Part shown: positions 7 to 31,780 of the stretch, piece after piece
Layout: every line of letters starts with the position of its first letter
Position numbering within the stretch: position 1 is the first letter of the stretch
Assembly: GCA_934661135.1 (NCBI GenBank)
Contig: CAKUJA010000005.1
Span: 1 to 32,000, forward strand
Origin: an uncultured Oscillospiraceae bacterium
Lineage (GTDB): Bacteria; Bacillota; Clostridia; Oscillospirales; Oscillospiraceae
Reading direction: 5' to 3'
Length of the DNA: 32,000 nt
The notes under the pieces: generated by a model
Databases searched by the model: none
What the model saw: only the letters and a program-made list of their open reading frames with translations
What the model was told of the DNA's origin: nothing
Made by a program: the position numbers and the translations under genes

Positions 7-1899
7 GTGCTGCTCCATCCTGATGTGGAACGAGCGAAGCGGCTCTTGGCGCAGGGCAAGTTTCCGGATTACGAGGATATTTGCCGCGAGATTTTGCTGG
101 TCGAATACCCGGAGGAAGTCCCGCATGAGACTGCCGAGGATTTCGATGAATTGTCGTGGGAACGTGTTCTGGATGATGTGTTTGCAGACGACCCGGAAAA
201 AGGGATGGAGATGTGGCGGCGGCTTCTGGACATCGCAGAACCGTCTCTGAAAACCGACGCTAAAACTGCCGAAAAACTTCTCCCGGATTGGGATTGGCTG
301 GATTCTCCAACCGACGATCAGGCGCTTCCACTTTTGGTCGCGTTGGATGACGAGCGGTTTGTATCGCAGCTTTTTGAGAGCGCGTTCCTCGACAGATTGC
401 AGTTCAATGTTCTGGAGATCTGTCGGGATTGTGGGGAGGAAACGCTGGCGCGGCATTGTATGGACCTTGCACTGAAAAATCCTTGGCTGGAGGAGCGGTG
501 GAGGAAACGGTATACACAGGTCCTTGCGGCTGCACCTTCTTCAAAACGCACAAGGCCACCTGCCCGTGCACTTGCAAGACCGCCTGTCAGTACACCGGCA
601 AAGCCGGCTGGCGAAAGCTATTATCAGTTCTGCAATGTGCAGTTCAAGGAGGATGGAGCGGCGTATGCCTATCTGACCGGGGGAATTTCGCTGAAAGCGG
701 GCGATTTTGTAGTCGTTCCGATCGGCGATCATCAAGCAGAAAAGCTTGCTCGGGTGACAGAGGTGTTCGTTTGCAGCACACAGAATGCGCCATATCCGCC
801 GGAGAAGGCGAAATTTGTGCTCCGCAAGTCTGAACGGACAGCCTTTCCGGAACGCAAAAAGCCGCAGCATCCTGCTCCAAAGCAAGCAGACGTGTCAGCA
901 CCGACTGAATCGAAGCGCGCAGTTCCGCCTGTGCAGTCCGCACCGACCGCAAATCCGCAGAAGTCTGCGCCGACTGTACAATCGGCAATCACACCGCCGA
1001 TCGTCAGCCAGACGCCGACGGAGCCAGAAATAACCGAAAAGAAATCTACGCTGTCAAAGAAGCCGTTCCCGTTTGGGAAGCTCATCGCGGCAGTTCTGGC
1101 AGTAGCCGTGATTGCTGGTATCTCTGTTTCCGTCTCGAACCGCAACAAGCAGAGAGCAGCAGCTTATGACGCAGCCCTGCAAGAGCTGTCAAACGGCAAT
1201 TACACTTCTGCCGAGCAGGACTTCTCGGAGCTTTCCGGCTATCGGGATGCGACATCGCTGTCTGTCTACTGCAAATATGCCGATATGTACAAAGACAGGA
1301 CGGACTACGCAGGCGGGCAGGATGAACTTTCAAACATCACGCTGCAATATGACACGGGCTGGCAGCAGAATATTGACGCGCTGGAAACCCGCGTTAAAAG
1401 CTATAAAGCGGAGAAAGACGCCGCCGAGGAAGCCGAGCGTCAACGCATCGCTGCGGAGAATGCCGCGAAGCGGGAGCAAAGTCTGAAAGATCAGTATTCC
1501 GGAAAACTGCCCGTGGATGGTATGCCCGTGAGTTGCTTGAAGTACACGTCACTCGGATCACCCACCAAAACTGAAAAGTGTCAGTTCTATGACAGCATGG
1601 ATGTCCATAGGCGATACAAAATCCTGCATTGGTACAACAGTGAAGGACAGACCGTAGCATATTGTCATTCTCATCAGCCAAAGGGAGAGTATACAGAAGT
1701 CATTTATGCCTTTACATATTATGAAACGCCCATCGGACGTCCAAACTCTGCCTCTCCGTGGACACCACCGAGTACATCGGGCGGCAACAATTCCGGAAGC
1801 GTCCGCGATGACTACGATAATCCGGAAGACCTCTGGGAAGATAACCAAGATTGGTATGAAGATGAAGACGAAGCATGGGATGAGTGGGAGAATGGTTGA
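7..1899 (+). CDS. hypothetical single-pass membrane protein with acidic Trp/Tyr-rich C-terminal tail (5' end may lie upstream of the window)
   Basis: 630-codon ORF with the frame open back to base 1. Pro/Ala/Ser/Thr/Gln-rich linker, then hydrophobic helix FPFGKLIAAVLAVAVIAGISVSV, a Cys/Tyr-rich distal domain and the tail RDDYDNPEDLWEDNQDWYEDEDEAWDEWENG. No family recognised. Confidence 0.7.
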   Translation: MLLHPDVERAKRLLAQGKFPDYEDICREILLVEYPEEVPHETAEDFDELSWERVLDDVFADDPEKGMEMWRRLLDIAEPSLKTDAKTAEKLLPDWDWLDSPTDDQALPLLVALDDERFVSQLFESAFLDRLQFNVLEICRDCGEETLARHCMDLALKNPWLEERWRKRYTQVLAAAPSSKRTRPPARALARPPVSTPAKPAGESYYQFCNVQFKEDGAAYAYLTGGISLKAGDFVVVPIGDHQAEKLARVTEVFVCSTQNAPYPPEKAKFVLRKSERTAFPERKKPQHPAPKQADVSAPTESKRAVPPVQSAPTANPQKSAPTVQSAITPPIVSQTPTEPEITEKKSTLSKKPFPFGKLIAAVLAVAVIAGISVSVSNRNKQRAAAYDAALQELSNGNYTSAEQDFSELSGYRDATSLSVYCKYADMYKDRTDYAGGQDELSNITLQYDTGWQQNIDALETRVKSYKAEKDAAEEAERQRIAAENAAKREQSLKDQYSGKLPVDGMPVSCLKYTSLGSPTKTEKCQFYDSMDVHRRYKILHWYNSEGQTVAYCHSHQPKGEYTEVIYAFTYYETPIGRPNSASPWTPPSTSGGNNSGSVRDDYDNPEDLWEDNQDWYEDEDEAWDEWENG

Positions 1900-1969
1900 C
1901 ATTATCCTCTGACTTTGCAACATACAGAATCTTCAAATGTAGATAGACGATCCTCGTTCATAGAAAATG

Positions 1970-2006
1970 CAAGGGACATTCTCAGAAGTATAGAGAATGT
2001 CCCTTG
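1970..2006 (+). terminator. 14-bp stem hairpin downstream of the 630-aa ORF (terminator-like, weak T tract)
   Basis: caagggacattctc (1970-1983) pairs perfectly with gagaatgtcccttg (1993-2006) around a 9-nt loop. It sits in an AT-rich spacer. No clear U-run follows. Confidence 0.4.
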
Positions 2007-2079
2007 TATACACATCAAGCCCTTTTGCAAAGATATAAATTTCTGAAGGAAAGTCGATGAAATATAATCCGGTTGCGCA

Positions 2080-2109
2080 TTGACAAGGCTTGTCAACCTG
2101 AACTAGAGT
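2080..2109 (+). promoter_or_regulatory. putative sigma-A promoter overlapped by a perfect 8-1-8 palindrome (candidate operator of the XRE regulator)
   Basis: TTGACA (2080-2085), 18-nt spacer, TAGAGT (2104-2109). TTGACAAG-G-CTTGTCAA (2080-2096) is a perfect inverted repeat covering the -35. Confidence 0.45.
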
Positions 2110-2147
2110 ATAAACAGGATATGCGCATATCTGCTTGGAGGGATACC

Positions 2148-2981
2148 ATGAAAACAGCTTTGGCGGTGATTCGGACACGCTGTAACTACTCACAAACGGT
2201 CTTGGCTTCTGGGCTTGGTCTTTCGCGTCAGGTCGTCAGTGCGTGGGAAAACGGAAATAAGAAGATCCCCAAGGGACGGCTTACCGAACTTGCTTTGCTG
2301 TTTGGTGTCCCGGTAACGCTTTTAACGACGAAGGAACTTGACGTTGTTGAACGCTGGTGTGACAGGCCGGTGTTTCCCACGCAAAAGCAGGGACGGCAGG
2401 TGTTTTCGTTTGAACCGGTTGGAGAGAATCGGAACGTAATCCTGAACGAACCGTCAGCCCCGATGCCGGCGGTGCAAAGCAGAGATCTGATGCAGCGCAG
2501 AAACTATACCATGCGGAAGCTTGCAGCATGTACGCAGATTCGCGCGGAGCAGCAGACGAAAGATCTGAGCATCGCAGAACCCTGTATCACAATTTTAGAG
2601 CAGATGCGGCGGCTCTTTGATACGGCGTTGACCGCAGAACCGCGTGTTCAGGAACAGATTCTGCGGTTCGTGCTGGAGCAAATTATGCTGCTGTGTCAGG
2701 TGCTTTCCCCGGACGCGCAGGACGCTGCGAACCTTACAGACTGGCAAAGACAGCAGCTTCAGATGCTCCGAACCCATTGGGCCGCTATGAACCGTGAACG
2801 CAGAAAACGAGAACAAAAATATGCGATCACAGAAACAAAGGATATTAAAGAATGCAGTCTGACGGAACGGCTCAACACACTCTACCATCACGCAATGACG
2901 CAGGGAATGGATCGTCGGGATCTGCAGCTCTATCTGGAACGGATTTGGGAGGAGGAATATGAAAGAGCAGATGAGAATTGA
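2148..2981 (+). CDS. XRE-family helix-turn-helix transcriptional regulator with an unrecognised ~200-aa C-terminal region
   Basis: HTH_3-like N-terminus MKTALAVIRTRCNYSQTVLASGLGLSRQVVSAWENGNKKIPKGRLTELALLFGV. ATG 2148 follows GGAGG (2137-2141), so the upstream TTG at 2073 is less likely. The stop overlaps the next gene. Confidence 0.85.
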   Translation: MKTALAVIRTRCNYSQTVLASGLGLSRQVVSAWENGNKKIPKGRLTELALLFGVPVTLLTTKELDVVERWCDRPVFPTQKQGRQVFSFEPVGENRNVILNEPSAPMPAVQSRDLMQRRNYTMRKLAACTQIRAEQQTKDLSIAEPCITILEQMRRLFDTALTAEPRVQEQILRFVLEQIMLLCQVLSPDAQDAANLTDWQRQQLQMLRTHWAAMNRERRKREQKYAITETKDIKECSLTERLNTLYHHAMTQGMDRRDLQLYLERIWEEEYERADEN

Positions 2982-5238
2982 ATTACATAACGAAACAGAA
3001 TATACAGAGCGTATTTCATTTCAGGATATTTGGGCACACGCAAGTAGGCTGAAGTATGCCGGTTGCCGCGTGGCTGCAATCACAGACCGAAATTCGGTGG
3101 ATGGTATTCACATGGCAGAGCACGAGTTTATGCGGAGAGGAATCCAGCCAATTTACGGCGTAACGCTCAACTGCATCGATGTTGATGACCGCTATGATGT
3201 GGTATTGCTCGCGGCAAATCTGACGGGCCGTGACAATATTTTTCGTTTGATCGAACTGCTGGAGAGCAACCGGTTTTCGTTTGGGCGTGCCGTTACCAGA
3301 GAACAGCTGGATGCCCATCGCAAGGGAATCCTTCTGGGGGCGGCTGCAAAGAACGGTCAGATCGTTCGTGCCATTCTGCATCGGCGGGATCAAAGGTATC
3401 TGGAGACGATCACGCAAGACTACGACTATCTGGAATTTACCAGTGAACCTTACGATATTGCCGCGACGGTGGTTCATCTTGCCGCGCAGGGAAATCTGCC
3501 GCTGTGCGCCGTCCAGTATGCCGTGCTGAACGAGCCAAGTGTGCCGCTGGAGAAATATGCCTACCTGACACTCTGCCGTTATTACTGGCAGGAGGCAGAT
3601 GCACAGTATTTCAAAACGACAGAGGAGCTGCGCGAGGAAATGAACGCTCTGTATGTTCTGCCCGTGGAAAAGCTGGTCGGTCAAAAGGTCTTGTACGATG
3701 ATCCGCTTAGAATTTTTGCGCGCATAGAACCAATGCCGACGTTAGAAGAAATTCTTTGTACAAGCGACGTCTCTTTTCATGCAGCGCGTATGAAGGAACT
3801 GAACATTCGTGTAAATTGTGCAATGCAGGAAAAATACGGTACACATTGCCCGGCGCAGGTTTCAGAACGCGTTCAAAGGGAACTGACGGAAATCAATGCG
3901 CAAAAGCAGGCGCATGTGATGTTGATGCTTGCAGATATGGCAAAACAGGGCGGCAACTCACAGGAACATATGATGGTTGCCGGAGAATACGCAAATTTTG
4001 AAATTCTCTATCTGCTTGGTGTCACGGAGCTTGACCCGCTGCCGCGCCATATTTATTGCAGGGTTTGCGGGTGTTGGCTGGAAACACAGGCTGAGATCGG
4101 CGAGAGCGTTGCTTGCCTGCGCTGCGGACAGATGGCTGTTGTATCCGGACTGAATGTACCGTTGGAACCGATACACGCATTATTAAAAGACGGCGCACAC
4201 TTTGAGATTCGTGCCTCTTCTGAACGCATTTCACACTGGAAGCAGGAGCTTGAGGAAGCAAACTGTATTGTATTGCAGGCACAGATGGGAGATCAGAAGC
4301 CACAGGAAGCCAATATGGATGCGCTATATAATATAGCCGCAGAACTCGGGGCCGGGGAATGGCGTAAAGAGCGTGAGTTTACATATCGGTTAACTTCTCA
4401 TCTGCCGCGAAATCGGGACAGCGGCACATCACAGCGATGGCTGTTGCCGAATACGAGCGCGTCGGACTTTATAAAACATCTGCCAGCGCGAAAGATTGCG
4501 AAGAACATTTACCAGCTCGAAATGCAGCCGAGCTATGCGGTTGAATGTGCGAGTGTTTATCCGATTCCGAGCAAAACATTGTCATTCCTTGCGGCCTGCG
4601 AAAAGGCTACCGGTATTTCTGCAAGCGAGATCTTGCTCAACGCGCAGGAGGTTCTTGCATATATCAGAGCGGTTGTGCCGCGTGAAAAAGAGCCGTCGGA
4701 CGCTGCCGTGTATGCGCTTTGGGTATGTGGTTTCAGTCCGGAGGAACCGCATGAAGAAAATGACCTGTACCCATCGGTTCAGGCAGTTGTGCAAAAAATG
4801 CCGCTAAAGAGTTTCGCGGATCTGACGAGAGTCTTTTCGATGCAGCATGGAACGGGAACATGGAAAAACAATGCAGAAAGTCTTTTGGCTACCGGAGCAG
4901 CAACGACGGAACAGGTTATCACCTGCAGAGAAGATGTGATGGAATATCTGTTGGCTCGTGGGGTCGAGAGAGAAACAGCTTATGAAATGATGGAAGGTGT
5001 TCGCAAGGGGCGGGCAGATGCACTTTGGGATCCGAGCAATTCTTCTCCGGACGCCAAGCGACAGCAACAGATTTTGCAGGATTGTGGGGCAGAGGATTGG
5101 TTCATAGAGAGTTGCAGAAAGATAAAATATCTGTTTCCGCGCGCCCACGCAGCGGCCTTTTCTGCAAATTTGATCAGAATCATGTGGTATTGTATTCATG
5201 AACCGGAGTGTGTTGCGCAAATCATGAAAGAACTGTAA
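2959..5238 (+). CDS. PolC-like (DNA polymerase III alpha, Gram-positive type) degenerate paralogue: PHP-like plus Cys4 zinc module plus distal fingers region, lacking exonuclease, most of the palm and the C-terminus
   Basis: 759-codon intact ORF with GGAGGAGG just upstream. Segments collinear with PolC as recalled: IELHNETEY..AAITDRNSVDG..IQPIYGV, VVLLAANLTGRDNIFRLIELL, DYDYLEF, PRHIYCRVCGC..CLRCGQ..GLNVPLE, ITCREDVMEYLLARGVERETAYEMMEGVRKGR, CRKIKYLFPRAHAAAFSANLIRIMWY. 23-nt overlap with the XRE gene. Confidence 0.85.
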   Translation: MKEQMRIELHNETEYTERISFQDIWAHASRLKYAGCRVAAITDRNSVDGIHMAEHEFMRRGIQPIYGVTLNCIDVDDRYDVVLLAANLTGRDNIFRLIELLESNRFSFGRAVTREQLDAHRKGILLGAAAKNGQIVRAILHRRDQRYLETITQDYDYLEFTSEPYDIAATVVHLAAQGNLPLCAVQYAVLNEPSVPLEKYAYLTLCRYYWQEADAQYFKTTEELREEMNALYVLPVEKLVGQKVLYDDPLRIFARIEPMPTLEEILCTSDVSFHAARMKELNIRVNCAMQEKYGTHCPAQVSERVQRELTEINAQKQAHVMLMLADMAKQGGNSQEHMMVAGEYANFEILYLLGVTELDPLPRHIYCRVCGCWLETQAEIGESVACLRCGQMAVVSGLNVPLEPIHALLKDGAHFEIRASSERISHWKQELEEANCIVLQAQMGDQKPQEANMDALYNIAAELGAGEWRKEREFTYRLTSHLPRNRDSGTSQRWLLPNTSASDFIKHLPARKIAKNIYQLEMQPSYAVECASVYPIPSKTLSFLAACEKATGISASEILLNAQEVLAYIRAVVPREKEPSDAAVYALWVCGFSPEEPHEENDLYPSVQAVVQKMPLKSFADLTRVFSMQHGTGTWKNNAESLLATGAATTEQVITCREDVMEYLLARGVERETAYEMMEGVRKGRADALWDPSNSSPDAKRQQQILQDCGAEDWFIESCRKIKYLFPRAHAAAFSANLIRIMWYCIHEPECVAQIMKEL

Positions 5239-5333
5239 TTCGGCGTGCTGAGAGGAGAGTGCTACTACAGTTGTATGGGAAATGATAATATTTATGGAGG
5301 AATAAACCAATTTATGACAAGGAGAAACGGATT

Positions 5334-5477
5334 ATGGCTAAAACAAATCACCTAACTTTCAATGATATTGAATTTATTATGCAGATGTTAGAAAAACAGA
5401 AAGCAAGCACTACAGATCCGGCGGAGCGCCAAAAGATAGAAGAAATCGAGGAAAAGATAAGAAAGATTGCATTTTAA
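5334..5477 (+). CDS. small hypothetical protein (47 aa), AT-rich
   Basis: ATG 5334 is preceded by AGGAG (5319-5323). It translates to MAKTNHLTFNDIEFIMQMLEKQKASTTDPAERQKIEEIEEKIRKIAF and stops at TAA 5475-5477. It is below the ORF-track length cut-off and no family was recognised. Confidence 0.4.
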   Translation: MAKTNHLTFNDIEFIMQMLEKQKASTTDPAERQKIEEIEEKIRKIAF

Positions 5478-5551
5478 GCCGTTAGGTCAAAAACTTCCTT
5501 ATAACAGCACACTATTTGGAAGCAACTTAAAATATGGAGCAGATGCCCAGC

Positions 5552-5582
5552 GCAGATCCTGCTCCGCAATAGACAAAGAATA
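5552..5582 (+). repeat. 31-bp motif copy A (candidate att/arm-type site)
   Basis: gcagatcctgctccgcaatagacaaagaata. It is 27/31 identical to copy B and 24/31 to copy C. It abuts the terminator hairpin of the DUF6076-like gene. Confidence 0.5.
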
Positions 5583-5610
5583 CGCGGCCGGTGCATCCAC
5601 CGGCCGCGTA
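5581..5610 (-). terminator. intrinsic terminator of the DUF6076-like gene
   Basis: Perfect 13-bp stem tacgcggccggtg / caccggccgcgta with a 4-nt loop. On the minus strand it is followed by TTCTTTGTCT. It lies 4 nt after the stop codon. Confidence 0.7.
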
Positions 5611-5613
5611 ATT

Positions 5614-6573
5614 TTATATTTTTGAGTCGCGGAGCCACTGCTGGAATTGCTCCAGCGAGATGATCTCGCGGTCACACTTCTTCTTTTCTTCTCTGGCCTG
5701 CTCGCTCCACGCATAAAACTGCTCGTCGGTGATGCGCCCGGCTTTGATCCACGCGAAGCGCTTTTTGTACTCCTTGCGGTACGCCTTGAAAATGGGATCG
5801 TCGGTCTGTTTTTTCGTCCACTGCCGGAACGCGCCGATCTCGCGGCAGCGCTGCTCACCGTACTTTACCGGGCGCTCGCAGTACTCCGCACTCACGCGGC
5901 CGGTCTGCGGAAACCAGCGGCCGCAGTTCTTGCAGCGGCGGACAGTCACGCCGCGCTCAACGCAGCTTCGCAGCGAATAGTCGATCATGTCCCGCACGGC
6001 GGACGAGTATAAAACAGGCGCGCAGCGGCCCGGTTCGACCGGCTCGAAGCTCAGCGGGATCGGCTTAAATCGGAACAGCTCCGGATTTCTCGGCTGGTCG
6101 TAATGGTAGTTTTGCGCCGCCTGTTTCTGCGGCTCACGACCGGCGGAATCCACGTCCAGCACGCATTCCAAAAACTTCTCAACCTGCTTCCTTGTCTCTG
6201 AAAACTGTGTTACAAACTCCTTTAAGTCCAAAGCAATCGCCTGAATTTCCGCTTGATCGTAGCCATTTACGGAAAAACAGCCGAAGCAGCGCGTATATAA
6301 AATACGGAAATAAATGTGCTTCTCGGCCAGCACGCCGAGCTCCACCATCGCGGCTGTATATGCTTCACGGTCGCGGCTCTCAACGAAGCGTTCCCAATTC
6401 ACGCTGATGCGTTCCAGCATCGGCGTGATTTCTTTTTCGTCCAGTTCCAGAAACGTCAGCAGACTTTCCAAAAACGGAAGCTCCAGCTGCTTGGACGGCA
6501 GCCCCTGCATTCCGAACGCATCGTTTTCAAAAAATTCTTTCTCACCGGAGAAATACATCTTTGCATACCACAT
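5614..6573 (-). CDS. DUF6076-like protein typical of Clostridial integrative elements (Cys-rich C-terminal half)
   Basis: C-terminal CKNCGRWFPQTGRVSAEYCERP..CREIGAFRQWTKK..FKAYRKEYKKRFAWIKAGRITDEQFYAWSEQA pattern, recalled from proteins annotated DUF6076. ATG 6573 sits 6 nt after GAGGTG, so the GTG at 6582 is less likely. Confidence 0.8.
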   Translation of the reverse strand: MWYAKMYFSGEKEFFENDAFGMQGLPSKQLELPFLESLLTFLELDEKEITPMLERISVNWERFVESRDREAYTAAMVELGVLAEKHIYFRILYTRCFGCFSVNGYDQAEIQAIALDLKEFVTQFSETRKQVEKFLECVLDVDSAGREPQKQAAQNYHYDQPRNPELFRFKPIPLSFEPVEPGRCAPVLYSSAVRDMIDYSLRSCVERGVTVRRCKNCGRWFPQTGRVSAEYCERPVKYGEQRCREIGAFRQWTKKQTDDPIFKAYRKEYKKRFAWIKAGRITDEQFYAWSEQAREEKKKCDREIISLEQFQQWLRDSKI

Positions 6574-7020
6574 GGTCATCACCTCAAATATGGACTAATT
6601 GTAAATTATAAATGTAATAGTCTTGACAAATATACATCCCTATGTTACCTTAAAACCAGAAAGCTGTCTAAATCATTTTATCATAGTCTAACACCGCATA
6701 GACAGCTTGTCAACGGTAAGTTGCCCTGTACCTTGAAAATTTCACACCCATCTCCAAAGACGATACTCGCCGGGGAAGTATGCCGCGACGCTGCGAAAGC
6801 AGCCAGCGTACCAAGGCGAAGCCAACGCTGTGTGCGTCAACAAAAGGCCGCAGGGCAGGAACGGGTATGGAGGATGGTAACCGGAAAAGAAAAAAGCCGT
6901 CCGGCTGCTGCAACAGTCGGACGGCGCGCCGCGTTTCGGAAAACACGGACTGCAACTATGTTAACTTTAACAGAGAGACCTCCGAAACGCAAGTTTTTTC
7001 TCTGAAATTTCTAAAATCTG

Positions 7021-7254
7021 ATGGAGGTAAAAAAGACTTTGAACACATCAAGCATCAAGAATTTTGATGAGCTGTCGCTGTTTCTCTACGCGCAGCTCGT
7101 CTCCCGCACGCTGGGCGTTTCGCCGTCAAGCGCCTACGAGCTTCTGCATGAGGATGGCTTCCCGTCACTGCGGATCGGCAGCCGACTGGTCGTGCCGAAG
7201 GAGCAGTTCCGTCTATGGGTGGAGCGGCAGACAGGAGACGCACATGAAGAATAA
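7021..7254 (+). CDS. excisionase-type (MerR/HTH_17-like) DNA-binding protein
   Basis: 77 aa. LVSRTLGVSPSSAYELLHEDGFPSLRIGSRLVVPKEQFRLWVERQ matches the excisionase-family HTH pattern. An alternative in-frame TTG start at 7039 is possible. Confidence 0.75.
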   Translation: MEVKKTLNTSSIKNFDELSLFLYAQLVSRTLGVSPSSAYELLHEDGFPSLRIGSRLVVPKEQFRLWVERQTGDAHEE

Positions 7255-7693
7255 ATACTATACCTCGCGCGATCCAATCAAAAACTACTTTCCTCTGCCG
7301 AACGAAGTTTTCAATCTCGGTCTTTCGCCGGGCGCGTTGGCGGTCTACAGCTATCTGATGTACATTGAGGATCGGACGACATATCAGTGCCATGCAAGCT
7401 ACAAAACGATTGGTAAAGCCGTCAATATGAGCCCGAACACCGTGCGAAAATATGTGACCGAGCTGGTCGAACGAGGGCTGATTCAGACAGAGCGCACGAC
7501 GATTATCACACAGGACGGCCGAAAGCAAAATGGGAGCCTTTTGTACACACTCCTGCCCATTCAGTTCTCCATCCAGCAGTTTTATGAGCAAAAGCTCGCA
7601 AAGCTGGACGCGGAATGTGAGCAGGAACGCATCCGAAAGCGGTTGGAAGCGTTCCAACTGGCGCAGCAGGAAACCGCCCGTCCACCAGCGTGA
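7244..7693 (+). CDS. winged-helix DNA-binding protein, replication-initiator-like
   Basis: MKNKYYTSRDPIKNYFPLPNEVFNLGLSPGALAVYSYLMY..YKTIGKAVNMSPNTVRKYVTELVERGLI is a wHTH pattern common in element-borne Rep/DnaD-like proteins. ATG 7244 follows GGAG and overlaps the upstream stop by 11 nt. Confidence 0.8.
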   Translation: MKNKYYTSRDPIKNYFPLPNEVFNLGLSPGALAVYSYLMYIEDRTTYQCHASYKTIGKAVNMSPNTVRKYVTELVERGLIQTERTTIITQDGRKQNGSLLYTLLPIQFSIQQFYEQKLAKLDAECEQERIRKRLEAFQLAQQETARPPA

Positions 7694-8052
7694 GCCGCGT
7701 GTGGCGGCTGTGTCCGATTTTCCGGACACAGCCGGGCGCGTACCCACCGAAAGCTCAAAACCGGACGTTGCGCCGCCGTGCGGGAGCGTTGCGGGAACGC
7801 CAAGCACAGAAGAAGGACACCTGCGGGCAATTTCGGACTGAGAGCAAAGCCGCAAGCGGCGAAGCAGGAGAAAGCCAAGGTGTCGTGCGCGCACCTTGGC
7901 GAACACATCTGCCCGCAGTGCGGGCAGTTTGGGGCTTTCACGCAGGGGTCGTTGAGAGGGCAAAAACAGCCCCATTGGGGTCGGAAGCGCAAATAATCCC
8001 GCTGTTTCAAGGAAAACAGCGGGGTCACACACAAAATTGGAGGGAAATTAGC
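7694..8052. other. hairpin-dense noncoding region (candidate origin: oriT, ori or sso)
   Basis: Perfect stems: 7706-7733 (11 bp), 7874-7900 (9 bp), palindrome 7909-7927 (9-1-9) and 7998-8023 (10 bp), plus shorter ones at 7694-7708 and 7848-7860. The in-frame ORF extension across it is Arg-rich low complexity. Confidence 0.45.
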
Positions 8053-8457
8053 ATGGCAAACAGGAAAATTAAATTTCCGCTTTGGCTTATGCCGGAAACA
8101 AAGGCGACAGTTGAACGTCTCTACCGGCAGAATGGATGCAGCAGCCAGAGCGAGTTCATGGAAAGGGCAATTCAGTTCTACTGCGGTTATCTGCAAAGCG
8201 AATACGCTGGAGACTTCCTGCCGAAGATCCTCGGCGAAACGCTGGAGGCCATCCTCAGTATGTTCGGTGACCGCATCGGGCGGTTACTGTTCAAGCAGAC
8301 CGTGGAGCACAATGTGATGAACCACATTCTCGCCAGCGATACGGATATTGATGCCGCGACATATCAGAAGATGCGAGGCATGAGCTATCAGGAAGTCGTG
8401 CAGACACATGGACAGATTTCATTCCCGGAGGTCCTGCGGAAGGAGAAGGCACTCTGA
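8053..8457 (+). CDS. ribbon-helix-helix-like small DNA-binding protein (hypothetical)
   Basis: 134 aa. MANRKIKFPLWLMPETKATVERLYRQNGCSSQSEFMERAIQFY resembles an RHH/CopG-like N-terminus. GGAGGG lies 8 nt upstream of ATG 8053. Confidence 0.7.
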   Translation: MANRKIKFPLWLMPETKATVERLYRQNGCSSQSEFMERAIQFYCGYLQSEYAGDFLPKILGETLEAILSMFGDRIGRLLFKQTVEHNVMNHILASDTDIDAATYQKMRGMSYQEVVQTHGQISFPEVLRKEKAL

Positions 8458-8468
8458 GCGAACACGGT

Positions 8469-8499
8469 TCAAAATCTGCACCGCCATAGACAAAGAAAA
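8469..8499 (+). repeat. 31-bp motif copy C (candidate att/arm-type site)
   Basis: tcaaaatctgcaccgccatagacaaagaaaa. It is 24/31 identical, ungapped, to copy A. It lies ~100 bp upstream of the first recombinase gene and is followed by an 8-bp stem hairpin at 8530-8558. Confidence 0.45.
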
Positions 8500-8602
8500 C
8501 CGAAATGATAACTTTCTGATAACTCTCCGCGCGGGAGGTTGCTATTGTATCTCCCGCGTGATAGTTGTTAGAGAAAAGACATAAAAGAAAGGAGTTCTGC
8601 AT

Positions 8603-9802
8603 ATGGGAAAACGGCGACCGTCCGGAGACGGGATGGTCAGGAAGCGCGACGATGGGCGCTGGGAAGGGCGCATCGTCGTGGGGCACAAGGCAAACGGCGA
8701 CCCGATCTTCCGGCACGTCTACGCGAAGACGCAGAAAGCGCTGACGGAAAAGCTGCACCAGAGCATTGAATGCTATCAGGACGTGGAGCTGACCGAGGAC
8801 AGCCGCATGACGCTGGGCGAGTGGCTGGACCGCTGGCTTGCGGAATACAAGGACGGCACGATCCGGTCGGGCACGCTGGAAGGCTACCGCAATTATATCG
8901 AAAACTACATCAAGCCGCAGCTCGGCGGCAAGCAGGTTTCGCTCATCACGACGCAGGACGTGCAGCGGATGTACCGGCGGCTGAAATCCGGCGGGCGTGT
9001 GCGCGAGGACGCCGAGGGCAGTAAGCGCCTCTCCGACTCGACCGTGCGGCACATCCACACGATGCTGCACGGCGCGATGAAGGCTGCGGTGCAGGCGCAC
9101 ATCATTCCGAAAAATCCGACCGAGAACGCGACTGCGCCGAAATCCAACTACAAGCCGATGCAGGTACTGAACGAACAGGAGCTGGACACGTTCCTGCAAG
9201 CGGTTCAGAAGGACGATATCTGGCGGGATTTCTTCTACACGGAGCTTATGACCGGCCTGCGGCGCGGCGAGATCTGCGCGCTCATGTGGCGCAACTTCGA
9301 CGCGAAGGCCGGGACGCTCGGAATCTCCCGGACGCTGCACAGCAAGGGGCAGGGCATCTACGCCCTCGGCGACACGAAAACGAGCCAGGGCAACCGCACG
9401 ATCATCCTGCCGGAAAGCGTCGCGGCGCTGCTGCGGGCGCGGAAGAAAGCCTCCATCAGCCAATGGATTTTTCCACAGCCGACCAGCCCGGAACTGCCGA
9501 TGAATCCGGGGACAGCATACCGGCGGCTCAAAACGCTGCTGGAGGAAGCGGGCCTGCCGAGCATTCGCTTCCATGATCTTCGTCATACATTCGCGACACA
9601 CGCCCTCACCAGCGGCGTGGACGCGAAAACGCTGGCGGGGATTCTGGGTCACACGAACGCCAGCTTCACGCTCGACACCTACACGCACGTCACGCCGGAT
9701 ATGCGCGAAGCCGCGGGCGGCATCGTCGGCGGCTTCATGGAGGATTTATTCGGAAAGGAGTTAAAGCCTTGGCAAAGAAGCGAAAAGCAGGCGACGGACT
9801 GA
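8603..9802 (+). CDS. tyrosine-type site-specific recombinase/integrase (Int1)
   Basis: 399 aa. N-terminal arm-type domain GDGMVRKRDDGRWEGRIVVG. Catalytic signatures TGLRRGE, FHDLRHTFATH, LGHTNASFTLDTYTHV. AGGAG lies 8 nt upstream. Confidence 0.95.
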   Translation: MGKRRPSGDGMVRKRDDGRWEGRIVVGHKANGDPIFRHVYAKTQKALTEKLHQSIECYQDVELTEDSRMTLGEWLDRWLAEYKDGTIRSGTLEGYRNYIENYIKPQLGGKQVSLITTQDVQRMYRRLKSGGRVREDAEGSKRLSDSTVRHIHTMLHGAMKAAVQAHIIPKNPTENATAPKSNYKPMQVLNEQELDTFLQAVQKDDIWRDFFYTELMTGLRRGEICALMWRNFDAKAGTLGISRTLHSKGQGIYALGDTKTSQGNRTIILPESVAALLRARKKASISQWIFPQPTSPELPMNPGTAYRRLKTLLEEAGLPSIRFHDLRHTFATHALTSGVDAKTLAGILGHTNASFTLDTYTHVTPDMREAAGGIVGGFMEDLFGKELKPWQRSEKQATD

Positions 9803-11193
9803 TCCGCCAGCGCGCGGACGGACGCTGGGAGGGGCGGTACGTTGTCGGCTACGACGATCACGGCTACCCGAAAACAAAGGCCGTCTTCGGCAAGAGCAAG
9901 CGCGAGTGCGCCGAAAAGCTGGCGGCGCTCAAGGCGCAGCTCGGCGGCATTCCGTCGGACAAGCTGCGGCCGGAGATGCGCTTTGCCGACTGGCTGGATT
10001 ATTGGTACGAAACGCACTGCAAGCCGAATATCCGAGCCTCGACGCAGTCCGGCTACGAAGACCGCATCCGCCTGCACATCAAGCCGGAGCTGGGCGAGAT
10101 TCCGCTGAACAGGCTGACGCAGAACGACCTGCAGCAGTTTTACGCGCGGCTGAAAAAGAGCGGCCGCAAGACGCGCACGGAATATTATGGTAAGGGGCTG
10201 TCCGATCGCATGGTACGGATGTGTCACGCGACCTGCCGCTCGGCGCTCCAAAGGGCTGTGCAGGATGGACTTATCCGCACCAATCCCGCCGAGGGCTGCA
10301 AGCTGCCGCCCAAAAAGGCGCGTGAGATGCAGGTGCTGGCGCGGGATGAATTGCAGCGGTTTCTTATTCAGGCGCAAGCCGAAGGGTATTACGAACTGTT
10401 CCTGCTGGATCTGGCGACAGGCCTGCGGCGCGGCGAGCTGCTGGCGCTGCAATGGAATGACCTCGATTTTGAAACGGGCGTCCTCACGATCAGCAAACAG
10501 GTCAGCTTGGTTCGCGGCAAGATCGTGATGAGCGTGCCGAAGACGAAAAGCTCCATCCGCAAGCTGGTGCTGCCGCCCGCCGTCGTGCAGGTGCTGAAAG
10601 AATACCGCGAAAGCGTCCACTCCCGCTGGATGTTCCCGTCACCGGTGCTGGAGGATCTGCCGCTCAACCCCGGTTCGGTCTACGACCGATTGCAGCTGAT
10701 TCTGGAGCACGCAAACTGCAAACAGGTGCGTTTTCACGACCTCAGACACACGTTCGCAACGTTGGCGCTGCAAAATGGGATGGACGTGAAAACGCTCTCC
10801 GCCATGCTGGGGCATGTGTCGGCAGCCACGACGCTGGACATTTACACGCACGCAACCTCTGATATGCAGCACGCCGCCGCGCGGAAGATCGACTGCGGCA
10901 TCGGAAAGGCAGAACTCCCGGACGAGCCTGCGCCGCAGGCAAATGCGCCCGCCATCGTTGACTTTCAGCCTTACATGGGCAAAGTCCGCAAGCCCGGAAC
11001 GGGCTGCATCAGCCAGATCAACGACCACCTCTTTGAAGGGCGCTACTCCCCGACATGGATCGACGGTAAAAAGCACGCCCAGAATGTGTATGCGCATACG
11101 CGCGAGGAATGCGAGGAGAAGCTGAAGGTGCTGATCGCAGAGATGAAAGCGGAGCTGGCGGAGTTGAAGCGGCAGAAGACTGACAAGCATTGA
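9769..11193 (+). CDS. tyrosine-type site-specific recombinase/integrase (Int2) with a C-terminal repeat of the arm-type domain
   Basis: 474 aa. TTG start 8 nt after AGGAG (9756-9760), overlapping Int1 by 34 nt. Signatures TGLRRGE, FHDLRHTFATL, LGHVSAATTLDIYTHA. The C-terminal 71 aa (10978-11190) resemble its own N-terminus. Confidence 0.92.
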   Translation: MAKKRKAGDGLIRQRADGRWEGRYVVGYDDHGYPKTKAVFGKSKRECAEKLAALKAQLGGIPSDKLRPEMRFADWLDYWYETHCKPNIRASTQSGYEDRIRLHIKPELGEIPLNRLTQNDLQQFYARLKKSGRKTRTEYYGKGLSDRMVRMCHATCRSALQRAVQDGLIRTNPAEGCKLPPKKAREMQVLARDELQRFLIQAQAEGYYELFLLDLATGLRRGELLALQWNDLDFETGVLTISKQVSLVRGKIVMSVPKTKSSIRKLVLPPAVVQVLKEYRESVHSRWMFPSPVLEDLPLNPGSVYDRLQLILEHANCKQVRFHDLRHTFATLALQNGMDVKTLSAMLGHVSAATTLDIYTHATSDMQHAAARKIDCGIGKAELPDEPAPQANAPAIVDFQPYMGKVRKPGTGCISQINDHLFEGRYSPTWIDGKKHAQNVYAHTREECEEKLKVLIAEMKAELAELKRQKTDKH

Positions 11194-11244
11194 TCGAATG
11201 GACAAATCGCAGCCGCCCGGTGCATGGCCTTCGGATGGCTGCGA

Positions 11245-11273
11245 TTGCGCTTTGGCAGATCGTTTGCTATAAT
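11245..11273 (+). promoter_or_regulatory. putative promoter of the lipoprotein-GNAT cargo operon
   Basis: TTGCGC (11245-11250), 17-nt spacer, TATAAT (11268-11273) with TGc immediately upstream (extended -10). Confidence 0.5.
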
Positions 11274-11304
11274 GAAACAAATCAAAGTTTGTGGAGGTGT
11301 TGGG

Positions 11305-11667
11305 ATGAAACAAATTGTATCTTTATTACTGTCCCTATTTTTGATTGTGGCTTTTTCAGGCTGTCATAATAGTGTAGACACGGGAGACATGCCACCAATG
11401 ATAGATATGTACGGTCAAAAATATGTGGCTCCTAATATGCCTGTTAATGAACTACCACAAGGCTATACTTATTTGGGAGAACTGAGCAAGGAGCAAGCAA
11501 ATGGCACAGGTCTTGAAGGATGTAAAATGTATGCTGTAACGGAATTAAACAGTATTCCTGATTTTTATCTATATCAAGAGTGTGGAACACCGATTGATGA
11601 CAATACTGTGGACAGCGAAAAAATACAATGGGCATATGTTCAGTGGCTGAAAGTAAAAGCAGAATAA
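11305..11667 (+). CDS. small lipoprotein (hypothetical)
   Basis: MKQIVSLLLSLFLIVAFSGC is a signal peptide with a lipobox Cys. GGAGG lies 7 nt upstream of ATG 11305. Composition is AT-rich, unlike the flanks. Confidence 0.75.
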   Translation: MKQIVSLLLSLFLIVAFSGCHNSVDTGDMPPMIDMYGQKYVAPNMPVNELPQGYTYLGELSKEQANGTGLEGCKMYAVTELNSIPDFYLYQECGTPIDDNTVDSEKIQWAYVQWLKVKAE

Positions 11668-11697
11668 GACAAATTCCTGTTCGAGAGAGTAAACGAT

Positions 11698-12141
11698 ATG
11701 ATAATGCGAGAAGTGAACGAAAATAAAAAGCAATTTATATCATTATTGTTATTAGCTGATGAACAAGAGAATATGATTGACCGTTATCTTGAAAAAGGAA
11801 CGATGTATGTGCTTGAAGACAATGATGTAAAAGCTGAATGTGTTGTCACGGATGAAGGTAATGGAATACTTGAAATCAAGAATATTGCGGTTGATCCGAA
11901 ATATCATGGAATGGGATATGGGAAAACATTAATTGACTTTATTGCCAGCAAATATGCAGATGAATATTCTGTTTTGCAAGTCGGAACTGGAGATAGTCCA
12001 CTGACAATACCATTTTATGAAAAATGTGGCTTTGTTCGTTCTCACAAGATTCCAAATTTCTTTACAGACAATTATAATACCCCAATCTATGAGGGCGGTA
12101 TAAAGTTAATAGATATGATATATTTGCAAAGGCGTTTATAA
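11698..12141 (+). CDS. GNAT-family N-acetyltransferase
   Basis: 147 aa. Acetyl-CoA binding pattern ILEIKNIAVDPKYHGMGYGKTLIDF and a YEKCGF motif. AT-rich codon usage. Confidence 0.9.
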   Translation: MIMREVNENKKQFISLLLLADEQENMIDRYLEKGTMYVLEDNDVKAECVVTDEGNGILEIKNIAVDPKYHGMGYGKTLIDFIASKYADEYSVLQVGTGDSPLTIPFYEKCGFVRSHKIPNFFTDNYNTPIYEGGIKLIDMIYLQRRL

Positions 12142-12165
12142 CTTCCAGTTTATCGAATCCGCCGT

Positions 12166-12196
12166 GCAAATCCTGCGCCGCAATAATCAAAGAATA
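12166..12196 (+). repeat. 31-bp motif copy B (candidate att/arm-type site)
   Basis: gcaaatcctgcgccgcaataatcaaagaata. It is 27/31 identical, ungapped, to copy A. It lies between the GNAT stop and the tRNA-Pro terminator. Confidence 0.5.
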
Positions 12197-12227
12197 ACTT
12201 TTTGCAAAAATCAAACAATTTTCATGG

Positions 12228-12264
12228 AAAACCCGCTGAAATCATAAGATTTCGGCGGGTTTTC
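12228..12264. terminator. bidirectional intrinsic terminator (GNAT operon and tRNA-Pro)
   Basis: 13-bp stem acccgctgaaatc / gatttcggcgggt (one G-U pair) with a 4-nt loop. It is flanked by AAAA on the left and TTTTC on the right. Confidence 0.75.
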
Positions 12265-12340
12265 TGGTCCGAGTGACTGGTTTCGAACCAGCGGCCTCGT
12301 GGTCCCAAACCACGCGCTCTACCATCTGAGCTACACCCGG
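12265..12340 (-). tRNA. tRNA-Pro (anticodon UGG), CCA encoded
   Basis: Manual cloverleaf: CCGGGTG-TA-GCTC-AGATGGTA-GAGC-G-CGTGG-TTTGGGA-CCACG-AGGCC-GCTGG-TTCGAAA-CCAGT-CACTCGG-A-CCA. 76 nt, all stems pair, C1:G72 and A73. Confidence 0.92.
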
Positions 12341-12471
12341 TTATGAAATTGAAAGGTCTTACTGTCTGTAGTCAGCCATGTGGTCAAAGGCGGATTTTCG
12401 GGCAATTCCGGAAATTGTGGAAAACCCGCAAATCCCCGCGTGTCAAGGGGTTCGGGCGATTCGGCTCTGCT

Positions 12472-12532
12472 TGGTCGGATGAACGCTGCTGCGCTCCCAA
12501 ACCACGCGCTCTACCATCTGAGCTACACCCGG
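12472..12532 (-). pseudogene. tRNA-Pro remnant: positions 1-38 identical to the intact gene, 3' part replaced or deleted
   Basis: CCGGGTGTAGCTCAGATGGTAGAGCGCGTGGTTTGGGA followed by GCGCAGCAGCGTTCATCCGACCA. The 38-bp perfect direct repeat is 12495-12532 = 12303-12340. The anticodon stem and acceptor stem cannot form. Confidence 0.6.
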
Positions 12533-30332: not shown

Positions 30333-30408
30333 GCTAGTGTGGCTCAGTCGGTAGAGCAGCTGATTCGTAATCAGCAGGTCGCCGGTTCAAGTCCGGCCAC
30401 TAGCTCCA
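30333..30408 (+). tRNA. tRNA-Thr (anticodon CGU), CCA encoded
   Basis: Manual cloverleaf: GCTAGTG-TG-GCTC-AGTCGGTA-GAGC-A-GCTGA-TTCGTAA-TCAGC-AGGTC-GCCGG-TTCAAGT-CCGGC-CACTAGC-T-CCA. 76 nt. Confidence 0.95.
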
Positions 30409-30450: not shown

Positions 30451-30520
30451 TATTTGTTCGGTTTTTCAGGTGTCAAAACCGCCTGACCCACACCGTGACC
30501 CACACGGCGAAATGTCCAGA

Positions 30521-30570: not shown

Positions 30571-31617
30571 TTACATGACCTGCGCCATAAATTTGCCCAT
30601 CTTTTCGGCGGCACTTTCCTGCATCTGGCGCGTGACGTGGGTGTAGGTGCGGAGTGTGAAGCCTGCATCAAAGTGGCCGAGCATACTCGATACGGTTTTC
30701 ACGTCTATGCCGTTCTGCAATGCCAACGTTGCGAATGTGTGTCGTAAGTCATGAAATCTCAGGTGTTCCAGCCCTGCGTCCTTCAGGATTTTCTTGTGGA
30801 TGTTGACCATCGAGGCCGGATGGTACATCTCGCCTGTTTTCGAGCGCGTGATGTCCGGTTCGCCTGCATTGTTTCGCCCTGCCTGTTTGCTGACGGAGAT
30901 GGTTTTGTTCTCAATGTCCAAGTCTGACCATTGGAGCGCGACCAGCTCGCCCTTGCGTAAGCCGCTGATGAGTTCGAGATAGAACATCGGCAGGACGCCG
31001 CGCTGGTCAGCCGCAGTCAAATAAGACTTGATCTGCTCCGGCGGCAGGATCTTCATTTCGTGCTTTGGGATTTTCGGCGGAACGCAGTCGTCCGCTGGAT
31101 TTCTGACAATCAGGCGTTCTTTCACTGCCCGGTCGAGTGCACTGTGCAGCATCGTGTGGATGCCACGAATCGTCGAATCGCTCAGTCCGGGCTGCTTTCC
31201 CTTCTGCGCTTCACGGAGCCGCCCATGCTCCTGTAGGTCTTTGTAGAGCCATTGCAGGTCGCGGCCTGTCAGTTTTTTCAGCGGAATATCCCCAATGCGC
31301 GGTGTGATGTGCAGTTCGATTCCTCGCCGGTAATACTCCGCAGTCGAGAACCGCAGATGCGGTTTTGCGTATAGCTCGTACCACGTTTGCAGCCATGTGC
31401 CGAGCGTGTACTCGTCTGCCCGACGCACATCGACAGTTTCCGCTTCCGCAACTGCCTTCGCCAGTTTCTCTTTTACCTCTGCTTGTGTCTTGCCGAGGAC
31501 GTTCTTGATCAGCCGTTTCCCTGTCTTTTCATCGTATCCGGCAGTGTAGCGCCCTTCCCAGCGCCCGTCCTTTCGTTTTCGGGTGTTGCCTTCCCCATTT
31601 GCCCGTTTCTTTGCCAT
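30571..31617 (-). CDS. tyrosine-type site-specific integrase (Int3), shorter than Int1/Int2 in the catalytic domain
   Basis: MAKKRANGEGNTRKRKDGRWEGRYTAGY arm-type N-terminus. Signatures SGLRKGE, FHDLRHTFATL, LGHFDAGFTLRTYTHV. ATG 31617 follows GGAGG. About 36 aa are missing between SKTGE and the NP-equivalent segment relative to Int1/Int2. Confidence 0.88.
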   Translation of the reverse strand: MAKKRANGEGNTRKRKDGRWEGRYTAGYDEKTGKRLIKNVLGKTQAEVKEKLAKAVAEAETVDVRRADEYTLGTWLQTWYELYAKPHLRFSTAEYYRRGIELHITPRIGDIPLKKLTGRDLQWLYKDLQEHGRLREAQKGKQPGLSDSTIRGIHTMLHSALDRAVKERLIVRNPADDCVPPKIPKHEMKILPPEQIKSYLTAADQRGVLPMFYLELISGLRKGELVALQWSDLDIENKTISVSKQAGRNNAGEPDITRSKTGEMYHPASMVNIHKKILKDAGLEHLRFHDLRHTFATLALQNGIDVKTVSSMLGHFDAGFTLRTYTHVTRQMQESAAEKMGKFMAQVM

Positions 31618-31780
31618 GTCTGTGCCTCCTTCGTTTTGGTAGCACAAACAACTACCACAGAAAGGGCGCAAAGTCTACTGATTTTTTCGGAAGATCGGAA
31701 TATTTTTTCTGCTTTCGCGTGCACCCAAAAGCCCTATTCTTTGTTTACTGCGGCGCAGTTTTTGACTCTGACAAATGATG

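Follow-up and report, generated by a model that had tools for sequence, protein, structure and literature searches.

Accretion of integrative and mobilizable elements (IMEs) and cis-mobilizable elements (CIMEs) at the attR site of tRNA genes has been described, and tandem arrays at tRNA or gene 3' ends have examples in those related to ICESt1 and ICESt3 and in IME_Sag2603_tRNAlys (PMC5704250). The 'Tyr duo' IMEs described in the same source include MTnPi1-3 of Prevotella intermedia, in which two distantly related tyrosine recombinases are encoded in tandem (PMC5704250). Here we describe a 32,000-nucleotide stretch of DNA (the window) from an uncultured Oscillospiraceae bacterium (GenBank assembly GCA_934661135.1, contig CAKUJA010000005.1, positions 1 to 32,000) in which three direct copies of a 31-bp motif, named A, C and B from left to right, partition an island that carries two overlapping tyrosine recombinase genes, Int1 and Int2, and that is anchored beside a tRNA-Pro(TGG) gene. 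With moderate confidence, we read the repeats as att-type sites at which mobile modules have become stacked beside the tRNA-Pro gene of this gut Clostridia bacterium.

The island is like the arrays that IMEs or integrative and conjugative elements (ICEs) form with CIMEs (PMC5704250) in having at least three direct att-type repeats, internal modules that lack an integrase and a tRNA gene alongside; the integrase module is the one closest to the tRNA and composite units are found together in other genomes. It differs from those arrays in the placing of its site, which is outside the tRNA and past its terminator, 55-200 nt from the 3' end, in its occurrence in gut Oscillospiraceae and in its carriage of a DUF6076 gene. 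Its likeness to the 'Tyr duo' IMEs comes from gene arrangement, namely the two adjacent tyrosine recombinase genes. The Prevotella elements belong to another phylum, however, and many relatives have the pair collapsed to one chimeric integrase of 475 amino acids (aa).

Array building by accretion is a known mechanism; the element family is undescribed, and our literature search returned no description of it and no paper mentioning DUF6076. Because the proposed mechanism is ordinary att-site accretion, its value is mainly in annotation and ecology and not in concept. If the reading is correct, one site of ~40 bp and one integrase pair would explain the assembly of a very common island family in human and animal gut Oscillospiraceae, a family whose members trade defence systems, efflux pumps and acetyltransferases, some of the exchanged DNA being ~90% identical to a Lachnospira gene. 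The motif would then be a sequence handle for delimiting islands and their modules in metagenomes, and DUF6076 would gain a defined genomic context.

The motif and its distribution

Reading the + strand of the window bore out the coordinates, the sequences and the shared orientation that the original prediction, made from the letters of the DNA, had given for the three copies: GCAGATCCTGCTCCGCAATAGACAAAGAATA at 5552-5582 (A), TCAAAATCTGCACCGCCATAGACAAAGAAAA at 8469-8499 (C) and GCAAATCCTGCGCCGCAATAATCAAAGAATA at 12166-12196 (B). Copy A stands at the junction of a left module, whose last genes encode a PHP protein and a 47-aa protein, with a DUF6076 module; C stands at the junction of a regulatory/mobilisation module with the integrase module; and B is an attR-type site adjoining tRNA-Pro. 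Without gaps, A matches B at 27/31 positions and C at 24/31, as claimed, while B and C match at 23/31. A repeat search placed A, C and B in one family whose similarity reaches 40 nt (5543-5582, 8460-8499 and 12157-12196). Such matches had been called very unlikely by chance, and the window does contain four occurrences of the 17-nt core CCGCMATAGACAAAGAA with up to three mismatches, where 0.14 would be expected from shuffled sequence. The fourth match is copy D (TCAAAAACTGCGCCGCAGTAAACAAAGAATA; 31735-31765, - strand), which was absent from the earlier list and lies 117 nt upstream of the start codon of a third tyrosine recombinase, Int3. B and D are mutually inverted, with 19.5 kb of housekeeping genes between them, and all copies are intergenic.

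The predicted placing of the copies was also sound. A, expected just outside the terminator of the DUF6076 gene, abuts the hairpin (5581-5610) that ends that gene; C, expected ~100 bp upstream of Int1, ends 104 nt before the Int1 start at 8603; and B, expected ~70 bp from the 3' end of tRNA-Pro, ends 68 nt from position 12265. A weaker partial copy had been proposed at 6694-6704. Its sequence is present, as is a perfect 10-bp inverted repeat (aagctgtcta / tagacagctt; 6661-6670/6699-6708), but we reject it as a copy of the motif. Conservation in relatives extends to the inverted repeat and not to the CCGC part, and we therefore take the operator-like sequence at 6661-6708 to be probably an operator in the divergent promoter. 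A candidate for a decayed motif past the stop codon of the gene for an 844-aa protein (window positions about 1925-1960) gave ~9/31 matches by eye and was likewise rejected.

We scanned one genome from each of 185,579 species with the pattern CTGCNCCGCNATARWCAAAGAA and derived the chance expectation from the information content of that pattern. The scan returned 115 stretches with the motif core, against about 4 expected by chance. Almost all were in Oscillospiraceae and other Clostridia, including Oscillibacter, Dysosmobacter, Faecousia, Flintibacter, Flavonifractor and many metagenome-assembled genomes, and there were one or two stretches per genome. Flintibacter faecis BX5, Dysosmobacter sp. 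and Oscillibacter valericigenes Sjm18-20 are among the genomes with the motif, and O. valericigenes AP012044.1 has two hits. The original prediction would have fallen had the motif been found at many unrelated loci, in the manner of repetitive extragenic palindromic (REP) elements; 115 stretches at 1-2 per genome show that it is not REP-like. The conserved block obtained from unconstrained flanking positions is CTCAAATC-CTGCGCCGCAATAAACAAAGAA-TAAG and agrees with the earlier 31-mer. Read in frame, the motif gives (S/A)xxAPQ and then a conserved TAA or TAG.

The contexts of the three window copies recur among 120 sites. A tRNA-Pro(TGG) gene lies on the opposite strand 40-220 nt to the right in 47 of these (the B-type context), with a terminator hairpin between, and genes like Int1/Int2 lie upstream on the same strand in 31. 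The C-type context, an integrase gene less than 600 nt downstream, is found at six of the 120 sites, the distance being about 100 nt in C-type copies; the A-type context, in which the 3' end of a DUF6076 gene lies 50-60 nt downstream, is found at five. The terminator hairpins vary among genera with compensatory changes while the motif is unchanged. A collection of 72,556 plasmids held no match to the motif and no related element. In the plasmid and phage collections together the sole 'phage' match, MT836066.1, is a bacterial chromosomal fragment: labelled 'Bacteriophage sp.' in GenBank, it carries genes for sugar transport and the metabolism of 2-keto-3-deoxygluconate (KDG), followed by a DUF6076 module (locus L150 below).

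Homology breakpoints and the order of modules

The loci denoted here by L numbers include relatives found through homologues of Int1 and of the 47-aa protein, and were compared as 8-kb blocks; breakpoints were taken from pairwise BLAST of related islands against the window or against each other. We found that the breakpoints coincide with the motif. At A they fall at window position 5565 (L008 and L009), at 5529-5549 (L024, L026 and L064) and at 5560, which is motif position 9 (L150); at C, homology breaks at 8492 (L013 and L008); and at B it breaks at 12196, the last base of the motif (L133 and L134). L009 and L011 part company 8 nt before C, with a ribbon-helix-helix (RHH) gene and a MobL gene, respectively, on the left.

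The sequences on the two sides of these breakpoints are those expected of the ends of an element, in that A-type copies abut host genes and B adjoins tRNA-Pro. To the left of the A-type copy there is an adenine deaminase/xanthine dehydrogenase cluster of ordinary metabolism in L064, and a sugar ABC transporter, KDPG aldolase, KDG kinase and aminotransferase in L150. In L133 and L134 a gene for a GNAT acetyltransferase and a 56-nt B site are followed, 1 nt on, by the stop codon of a convergent MerR/TipAS gene, and GC content rises at this junction from 31-41% to 50-57%; in L134 the left arm of B is more conserved than the adjoining GNAT gene. Positions 1-8 of A-type copies change with the left context (GCAGATCC, GCAGATTC, GCAATTCC, GCAGTTTC, ACAGATCG and CTGTATTT) while positions 9-31 and the right flank are constant, which is the pattern expected of attL, target followed by element. 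B-type copies share one left arm (ttccagtttgccgaatccgcagc-GCAAATCCTGCGCCGC), which continues into three different right arms, and motif position 17 changes together with the right arm, as would be expected of attR, element followed by target. The conserved left arm of B in the window (ttccagtttatcgaatccgccgt; 12143-12165, + strand) follows differing cargo genes in relatives. Open reading frames (ORFs) that run into att sites are common, and several end inside the motif at its TAA or TAG: an Int2-like ORF of 490 aa in L084, likewise in L097, and a DJ-1/PfpI gene in L046, L104, L123, L128 and L130.

The related islands share a common order of modules. Its left half reads (ResIII/restriction protein), 844-aa protein, HTH_3, PHP, 47-aa protein, A, DUF6076, (HTH_17) and HTH_36; its right half consists of RHH, RHH+MobL or an SLH cassette, then C, Int1, Int2, variable cargo, B, the terminator and tRNA-Pro. 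This order is seen with at least four chromosomal right flanks, which are GltX in the window, an energy-coupling factor (ECF) transporter in L008/L013, TrmB in L035/L109 and NrdD in L138. L013, L137 and L139 have the same A...B pair on either side of the unit, and direct multi-copy arrays are present in L017 (four copies, one of them beyond the tRNA) and in L026, L035 and L129 (two each). As accretion would have it, A, C and B in the window are all on the + strand and the A-C unit is without a recombinase. The left unit at A varies, being PHP/47-aa, a gene for a 285-aa protein or host DNA, and so does the unit left of C, which is RHH, MobL or an SLH cassette; from these comparisons the units appear to exchange independently at internal sites. 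The stretch from HTH_36 to the C-type site includes a MobL relaxase gene in L011, L136, L129 and L115. The 47-aa marker gene is present in 663 blocks of the assembly collection.

A start of the island at A did not hold. The genes to its left (7-5477, + strand) are also left of A in L013 and L135-L143, where they belong to the same mosaic island in other chromosomal contexts, and since the first ORF of the window is the C-terminal part of the 844-aa protein, the left end of the island lies beyond the window start. In L009, L138 and L143 a leftmost motif copy (GCARAATTTGCGCGGCAATAWACAAAGA...), after a shared left-side flank by deformylase genes, closes the island. The mosaic may extend still further, because in L144 the deformylase block is bracketed by two motif-like copies with defence genes around.

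Tandem units that share one target, one of three options in the original prediction, provide the best fit to these comparative data, with A-C as a recombinase-less unit and C-B as a recombinase pair plus cargo. The option of a single integrative element from A to B survives in part: A-to-B does travel as a composite in many genomes, but the island extends to the left of A. The third option, in which the copies are arm-type sites, is rejected because breakpoints inside the motif or at its edge leave no room for a separate core.

We propose that the motif is the core attachment site of integrative, often mobilisable, Oscillospiraceae elements driven by the overlapping recombinase genes Int1 and Int2, and that their primary chromosomal target is just past the terminator of tRNA-Pro(TGG). 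Functionally, the motif would be about 40-48 bp long and would consist of a weakly conserved left arm of ~17 nt, CTGC and a right arm of ~20 nt. The left end of each unit would supply positions ~9-31, and the right end positions ~1-8 preceded by the unit's own left arm; unit ends split at ~8/9 would place strand exchange around CTGC. The sequences themselves show the repeats, how they are distributed among genomes and the breakpoints at the motif; we infer both this position of exchange and the action of Int1/Int2 on the motif, at sites that would be active at present. Repeated integration at the tRNA-proximal site would create a tandem array in which the left module (...844-aa protein, HTH_3, PHP, 47-aa protein), A, a module of DUF6076, Xis-like, HTH_36 and RHH genes, C, the module of Int1, Int2 and cargo, and B follow one another up to the terminator and tRNA-Pro. 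B would be attR, and A and C would be internal P/P' hybrid junctions between stacked units. The modules without an integrase would be CIME-like passengers, movable only with or through the Int module, and A-to-B would be the usual composite mobile unit.

Two loci may illustrate simpler states of the site. L085 has MurE, tRNA-Ala, 424 bp, the motif, a terminator and tRNA-Pro in succession and is apparently an almost empty site. L081 reads as a decayed minimal unit, with an AAA_5 ATPase and neighbouring host-like genes ahead of the motif, and then an integrase remnant and, where the contig ends, a partial tRNA-Arg. No matched pair of empty and occupied sites with identical flanks was obtained among the related loci compared, and exact-protein look-ups with Int1, GltX and the PHP protein returned same-strain contigs only and hence no empty site. 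Following the deformylase flank in search of an empty site led to L148, which lacks the motif, and to L144, with its bracketed deformylase block.

Weighing the alternatives

A number of observations weigh against att-type sites of stacked modules as the explanation of the repeats. L148 is a related tRNA-Pro locus without the motif and without an integrase, and most tRNA-Pro-linked sites that lack an integrase in the 8-kb block have island-like cargo on the left, so that a clean attB is rare. A metagenome scan for attP/circle or tandem junctions, in which the left arm of B would be joined to the right flank of A or C, found none; it returned only L133/L134, where a B site is joined to the MerR/TipAS gene and which are not circles. 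Copy C decays in close relatives (L137/L139/L140 and L013/L135), where the int promoter stays intact, and may thus be a relic. The order Mob-motif-Int recurs in diverged elements with different relaxases (MobL and the MobA/VirD2 type). This is awkward for repeated independent accretion and suggests that the internal copy has its own function or that the motif doubles as a sequence like an origin of transfer (oriT). No convincing dyad or hairpin was found in the motif by folding of the 40-mers or by an analysis of symmetry across 112 distinct sites: the 40-mers fold at -2.3 to -3.6 kcal/mol, no better or marginally better than shuffles and with no common structure, and complementarity across the sites is limited to CA-N5-TG and a GCGC centre. 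The same side of the balance holds the blocks duplicated in L035 and L019, which run from the motif through the terminator and reach 11 or 18 nt into tRNA-Pro from its 3' end, an extent that would fit a crossover within the tRNA and a motif carried as passenger. It also holds the Int3-type elements at tRNA-Thr/Arg, which keep a C-type copy upstream of int and have no recognisable motif on the tRNA side.

These last two observations, together with the lack of dyad symmetry, are what one would expect if the motif were a protein-binding site close to the element ends and upstream of int (an arm-type site, a site for an accessory protein, or an autoregulatory site for the conserved N-terminal domain of the integrases) and strands were exchanged within the 3' end of the tRNA; Int1, Int2 and Int3 are also alike over their N-terminal ~30 residues in the translations, in the case of Int3 by eye. 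We nevertheless consider this rather unlikely, because host or foreign DNA starts 0-23 nt from the motif in L150, L064 and L133/L134, with no space for a separate core, and no tRNA-Pro 3' fragment was found to the left of any A-type copy. Moreover, other short tandem repeats (TGATAACT x2 and TGGGTCA x2, see below) already resemble arm-type sites, and in L085 the motif is present with just 424 bp to tRNA-Ala. It is a good deal less probable that the copies are oriT/nic-like borders for a Mob relaxase, with segments between direct copies mobilised by nicking and termination and not by the integrases. They do resemble T-DNA borders and oriT in that transferable segments lie between direct, imperfect repeats of about 25-31 bp. 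The motif also begins 6-9 nt past the stop codon of a relaxase gene in some loci, the relaxase being MobL in L011, L136, L129 and L115 and of the MobA/VirD2 type in L121. A hairpin precedes each copy on the - strand, and the left part of the motif (AAATCCTG/C) resembles the IncP/T-DNA nick consensus, which we take to be ATCCTG|C. Conservation within the motif is lowest, however, in the bases 5' of that putative nick; no relaxase accompanies the window element or many other motif-carrying islands; the motif marks integration junctions between host and element and the tRNA-Pro hotspot, with integrases upstream; and there were 0 matches in the 72,556 plasmids.

The decay of C in relatives, the role of the right half of the motif as the T-tract of the - strand terminators at A and B, and the failure of the metagenome scan to find an excision product would all follow if the copies were inert relics, that is, a duplicated piece from downstream of tRNA-Pro (the terminator U-tract and the 3' end of a neighbouring gene), moved along by rearrangements and now functionless. 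Against this, 31-40 nt hold constant across genera next to hairpins and spacers that have diverged with compensatory changes, conservation is higher in the 56-nt B site than in the neighbouring GNAT gene, and A-type and C-type copies persist where the DUF6076 protein is only 29% identical (L129); we give the relic explanation little credence. Every copy is intergenic, as a dispersed REP-like repeat unrelated to mobile elements would be, but 1-2 copies per genome in the scan with 4 in the 32-kb window, a motif that is not palindromic and a tight linkage to integrases and tRNA-Pro leave that idea with next to no chance of being correct.

A bolder extension of the att-site reading makes the motif a portable landing pad on every unit and Int1/Int2 a module-capture platform anchored at tRNA-Pro, with an integron-like function. 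In this extension, which we think unlikely, defence and accessory modules (BREX, restriction, GmrSD, toxin-antitoxin, efflux and GNAT) of other bacteria, AT-rich Lachnospiraceae DNA among them, would be captured one after another, reshuffled and then expressed from a conserved promoter that follows Int2, and the system would combine lambda-type integrases with multi-gene cassettes and be widespread in gut Oscillospiraceae. The locus is like integrons (IntI, attI and attC) in having a recombinase beside an array of modules with a recurring site and, probably, a conserved promoter-like sequence directed at a variable cargo slot, and unlike them in that its modules are multi-gene and have their own promoters. 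An integron in the strict sense was rejected: Int1 and Int2 score 41-49 bits against NCBIfam cut-offs of 265-435 for integron integrases, and the motif is conserved in sequence without attC-like folding. Xer/dif sites and pdif modules also offer a parallel, with a ~30-bp site that delimits modules and is possibly served by two tyrosine recombinases. The island differs in that its recombinases are element-encoded and have arm-type N-terminal domains, and in that its sites are all in direct orientation; a dif/Xer-type site was rejected since the 112 distinct sites show no inverted 11-bp arms around a 6-8-bp centre.

Genes of the island and its surroundings

Gene families were assigned with Pfam and NCBIfam profile searches. 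All genes of the left module(s) are on the + strand and encode the C-terminal 630 aa of the 844-aa protein, which has no family match (7-1899), an HTH_3 protein (2073-2981), a PolC-like PHP protein of 759 aa (2959-5238) and the 47-aa protein (5334-5477). In relatives the 844-aa, HTH_3 and PHP genes are preceded by a gene for a ResIII/restriction-endonuclease protein or by BREX genes (PglZ and BrxL), and the stretch 7-5238 may be a defence module. To the right of A, the hairpin at 5581-5610 is a bidirectional terminator, and the right part of motif A supplies, as its reverse complement, the T-rich tail on the - strand. The hairpin is followed by the gene for the DUF6076 protein (5614-6573, - strand; 319 aa as called in relatives) and, on the + strand, by genes for an HTH_17 or excisionase-family DNA-binding protein (7021-7254), which is a weak match and a candidate Xis, an HTH_36 winged-helix protein (7244-7693) and an RHH (CopG-like) protein (8053-8457). 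The HTH_17 gene has a long, well conserved untranslated leader upstream (6740-7020) without an Rfam match; an Rfam search of the window yielded two tRNAs only. No relaxase was found among the window proteins in the Pfam/NCBIfam search.

Int1 (399 aa; 8603-9802) and Int2 (474 aa, with a C-terminal extension; 9769-11193) are encoded on the + strand by genes that overlap by 34 nt. Both are tyrosine recombinases that match Phage_integrase and Phage_int_SAM_3 with E about 1e-26, and they are 40% identical to each other. Most relatives of Int1 are single 475-aa integrases that combine residues 1 to about 333 of Int1 with the C-terminal part of Int2, an arrangement that would correspond to a deletion fusion of the tandem pair at a conserved HDLRHTFAT box. 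Breaks within Int2 are found in two metagenome assemblies of this strain. In the 475-aa relatives the C-terminal extension, near-identical to that of Int2 (residues about 404-453, window about 10978-11127), resembles the N-terminal arm-binding-type domain of Int1, with 35-37% identity over 51 residues; an extension of this type has the look of a fusion to the beginning of another integrase.

The direct repeat TGATAACT-ttc-TGATAACT (8506-8524, + strand) lies between C and Int1. It is the sole exact tandem pair from the search of the window, and every relative retains it, including those in which C has decayed. A second tandem repeat, TGGGTCAcggtgTGGGTCA (TGGGTCA x2), is present at 30484-30502 between the stop codon of Int3 and the terminator of the tRNA. 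Int3-like loci at tRNA-Thr/Arg conserve it, on the tRNA side and in place of the motif. Judged by their sequences, both repeats look like arm-type sites and are candidates for this function, although operator sites are the other candidate role for the repeat upstream of Int1. Int3 itself (348 aa; 30571-31617, - strand) is next to tRNA-Thr(CGT) (30333-30408), and its element runs past the window end. A motif-like sequence was sought between Int3-type genes and their tRNAs, where the alignment scores were within the shuffle range.

Some 100 nt past the stop codon of Int2 (11194-11323) are conserved among relatives with different cargo and hold a hairpin; within them, the right half of motif A with its hairpin is matched at 72% identity by 11197-11225. 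An extended -10-like sequence, TGCTATAAT, at 11265-11273 faces the cargo slot downstream of Int2, so that a conserved promoter-like sequence may be directed at a variable slot. In the window the slot is occupied by + strand genes for a predicted lipoprotein without a family match (11305-11667) and the GNAT acetyltransferase (11698-12141), both of them AT-rich; the GC content of the cargo (11305-12141) is 34-38%. The GNAT DNA is 90.5% identical to a gene of the Lachnospira (Eubacterium) eligens megaplasmid. The similarity (11670-12151) ends where the left arm of B begins, and it suggests a recent transfer between families.

The anchor of the island, tRNA-Pro(TGG), was identified by a tRNA search at 12265-12340 on the - strand, and a repeat search identified its terminator hairpin at 12227-12264. 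An exact 38-nt copy of the 5' half of the tRNA, as far as the anticodon loop, lies at 12495-12532, 154 bp beyond the intact gene. The 154-bp unit (12341-12494) and the half-tRNA are also present in L008, L035 and L095, and are found twice in L109 and are absent from L013. Distant integrase-like gene pairs lie on the half-tRNA side of the motif in L096, L120, L123 and L131, with no tRNA-Pro detected in L123. From its sequence and position, the half-tRNA looks like the scar of a second element family, or the end of one, with the anticodon loop as its target. An island carrying its own tRNA-Pro and integrating at the anticodon loop was considered and rejected, given that L013 is without the half-copy and that the left junction in L035 keeps 11 nt of the tRNA 3' end. 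In L015, an IMG/VR contig, a prophage with two large serine recombinases (3100-8252) directly follows the motif and terminator and is inserted 3 nt into the 3' end position of tRNA-Pro, which makes the tRNA-Pro locus a hotspot for unrelated elements.

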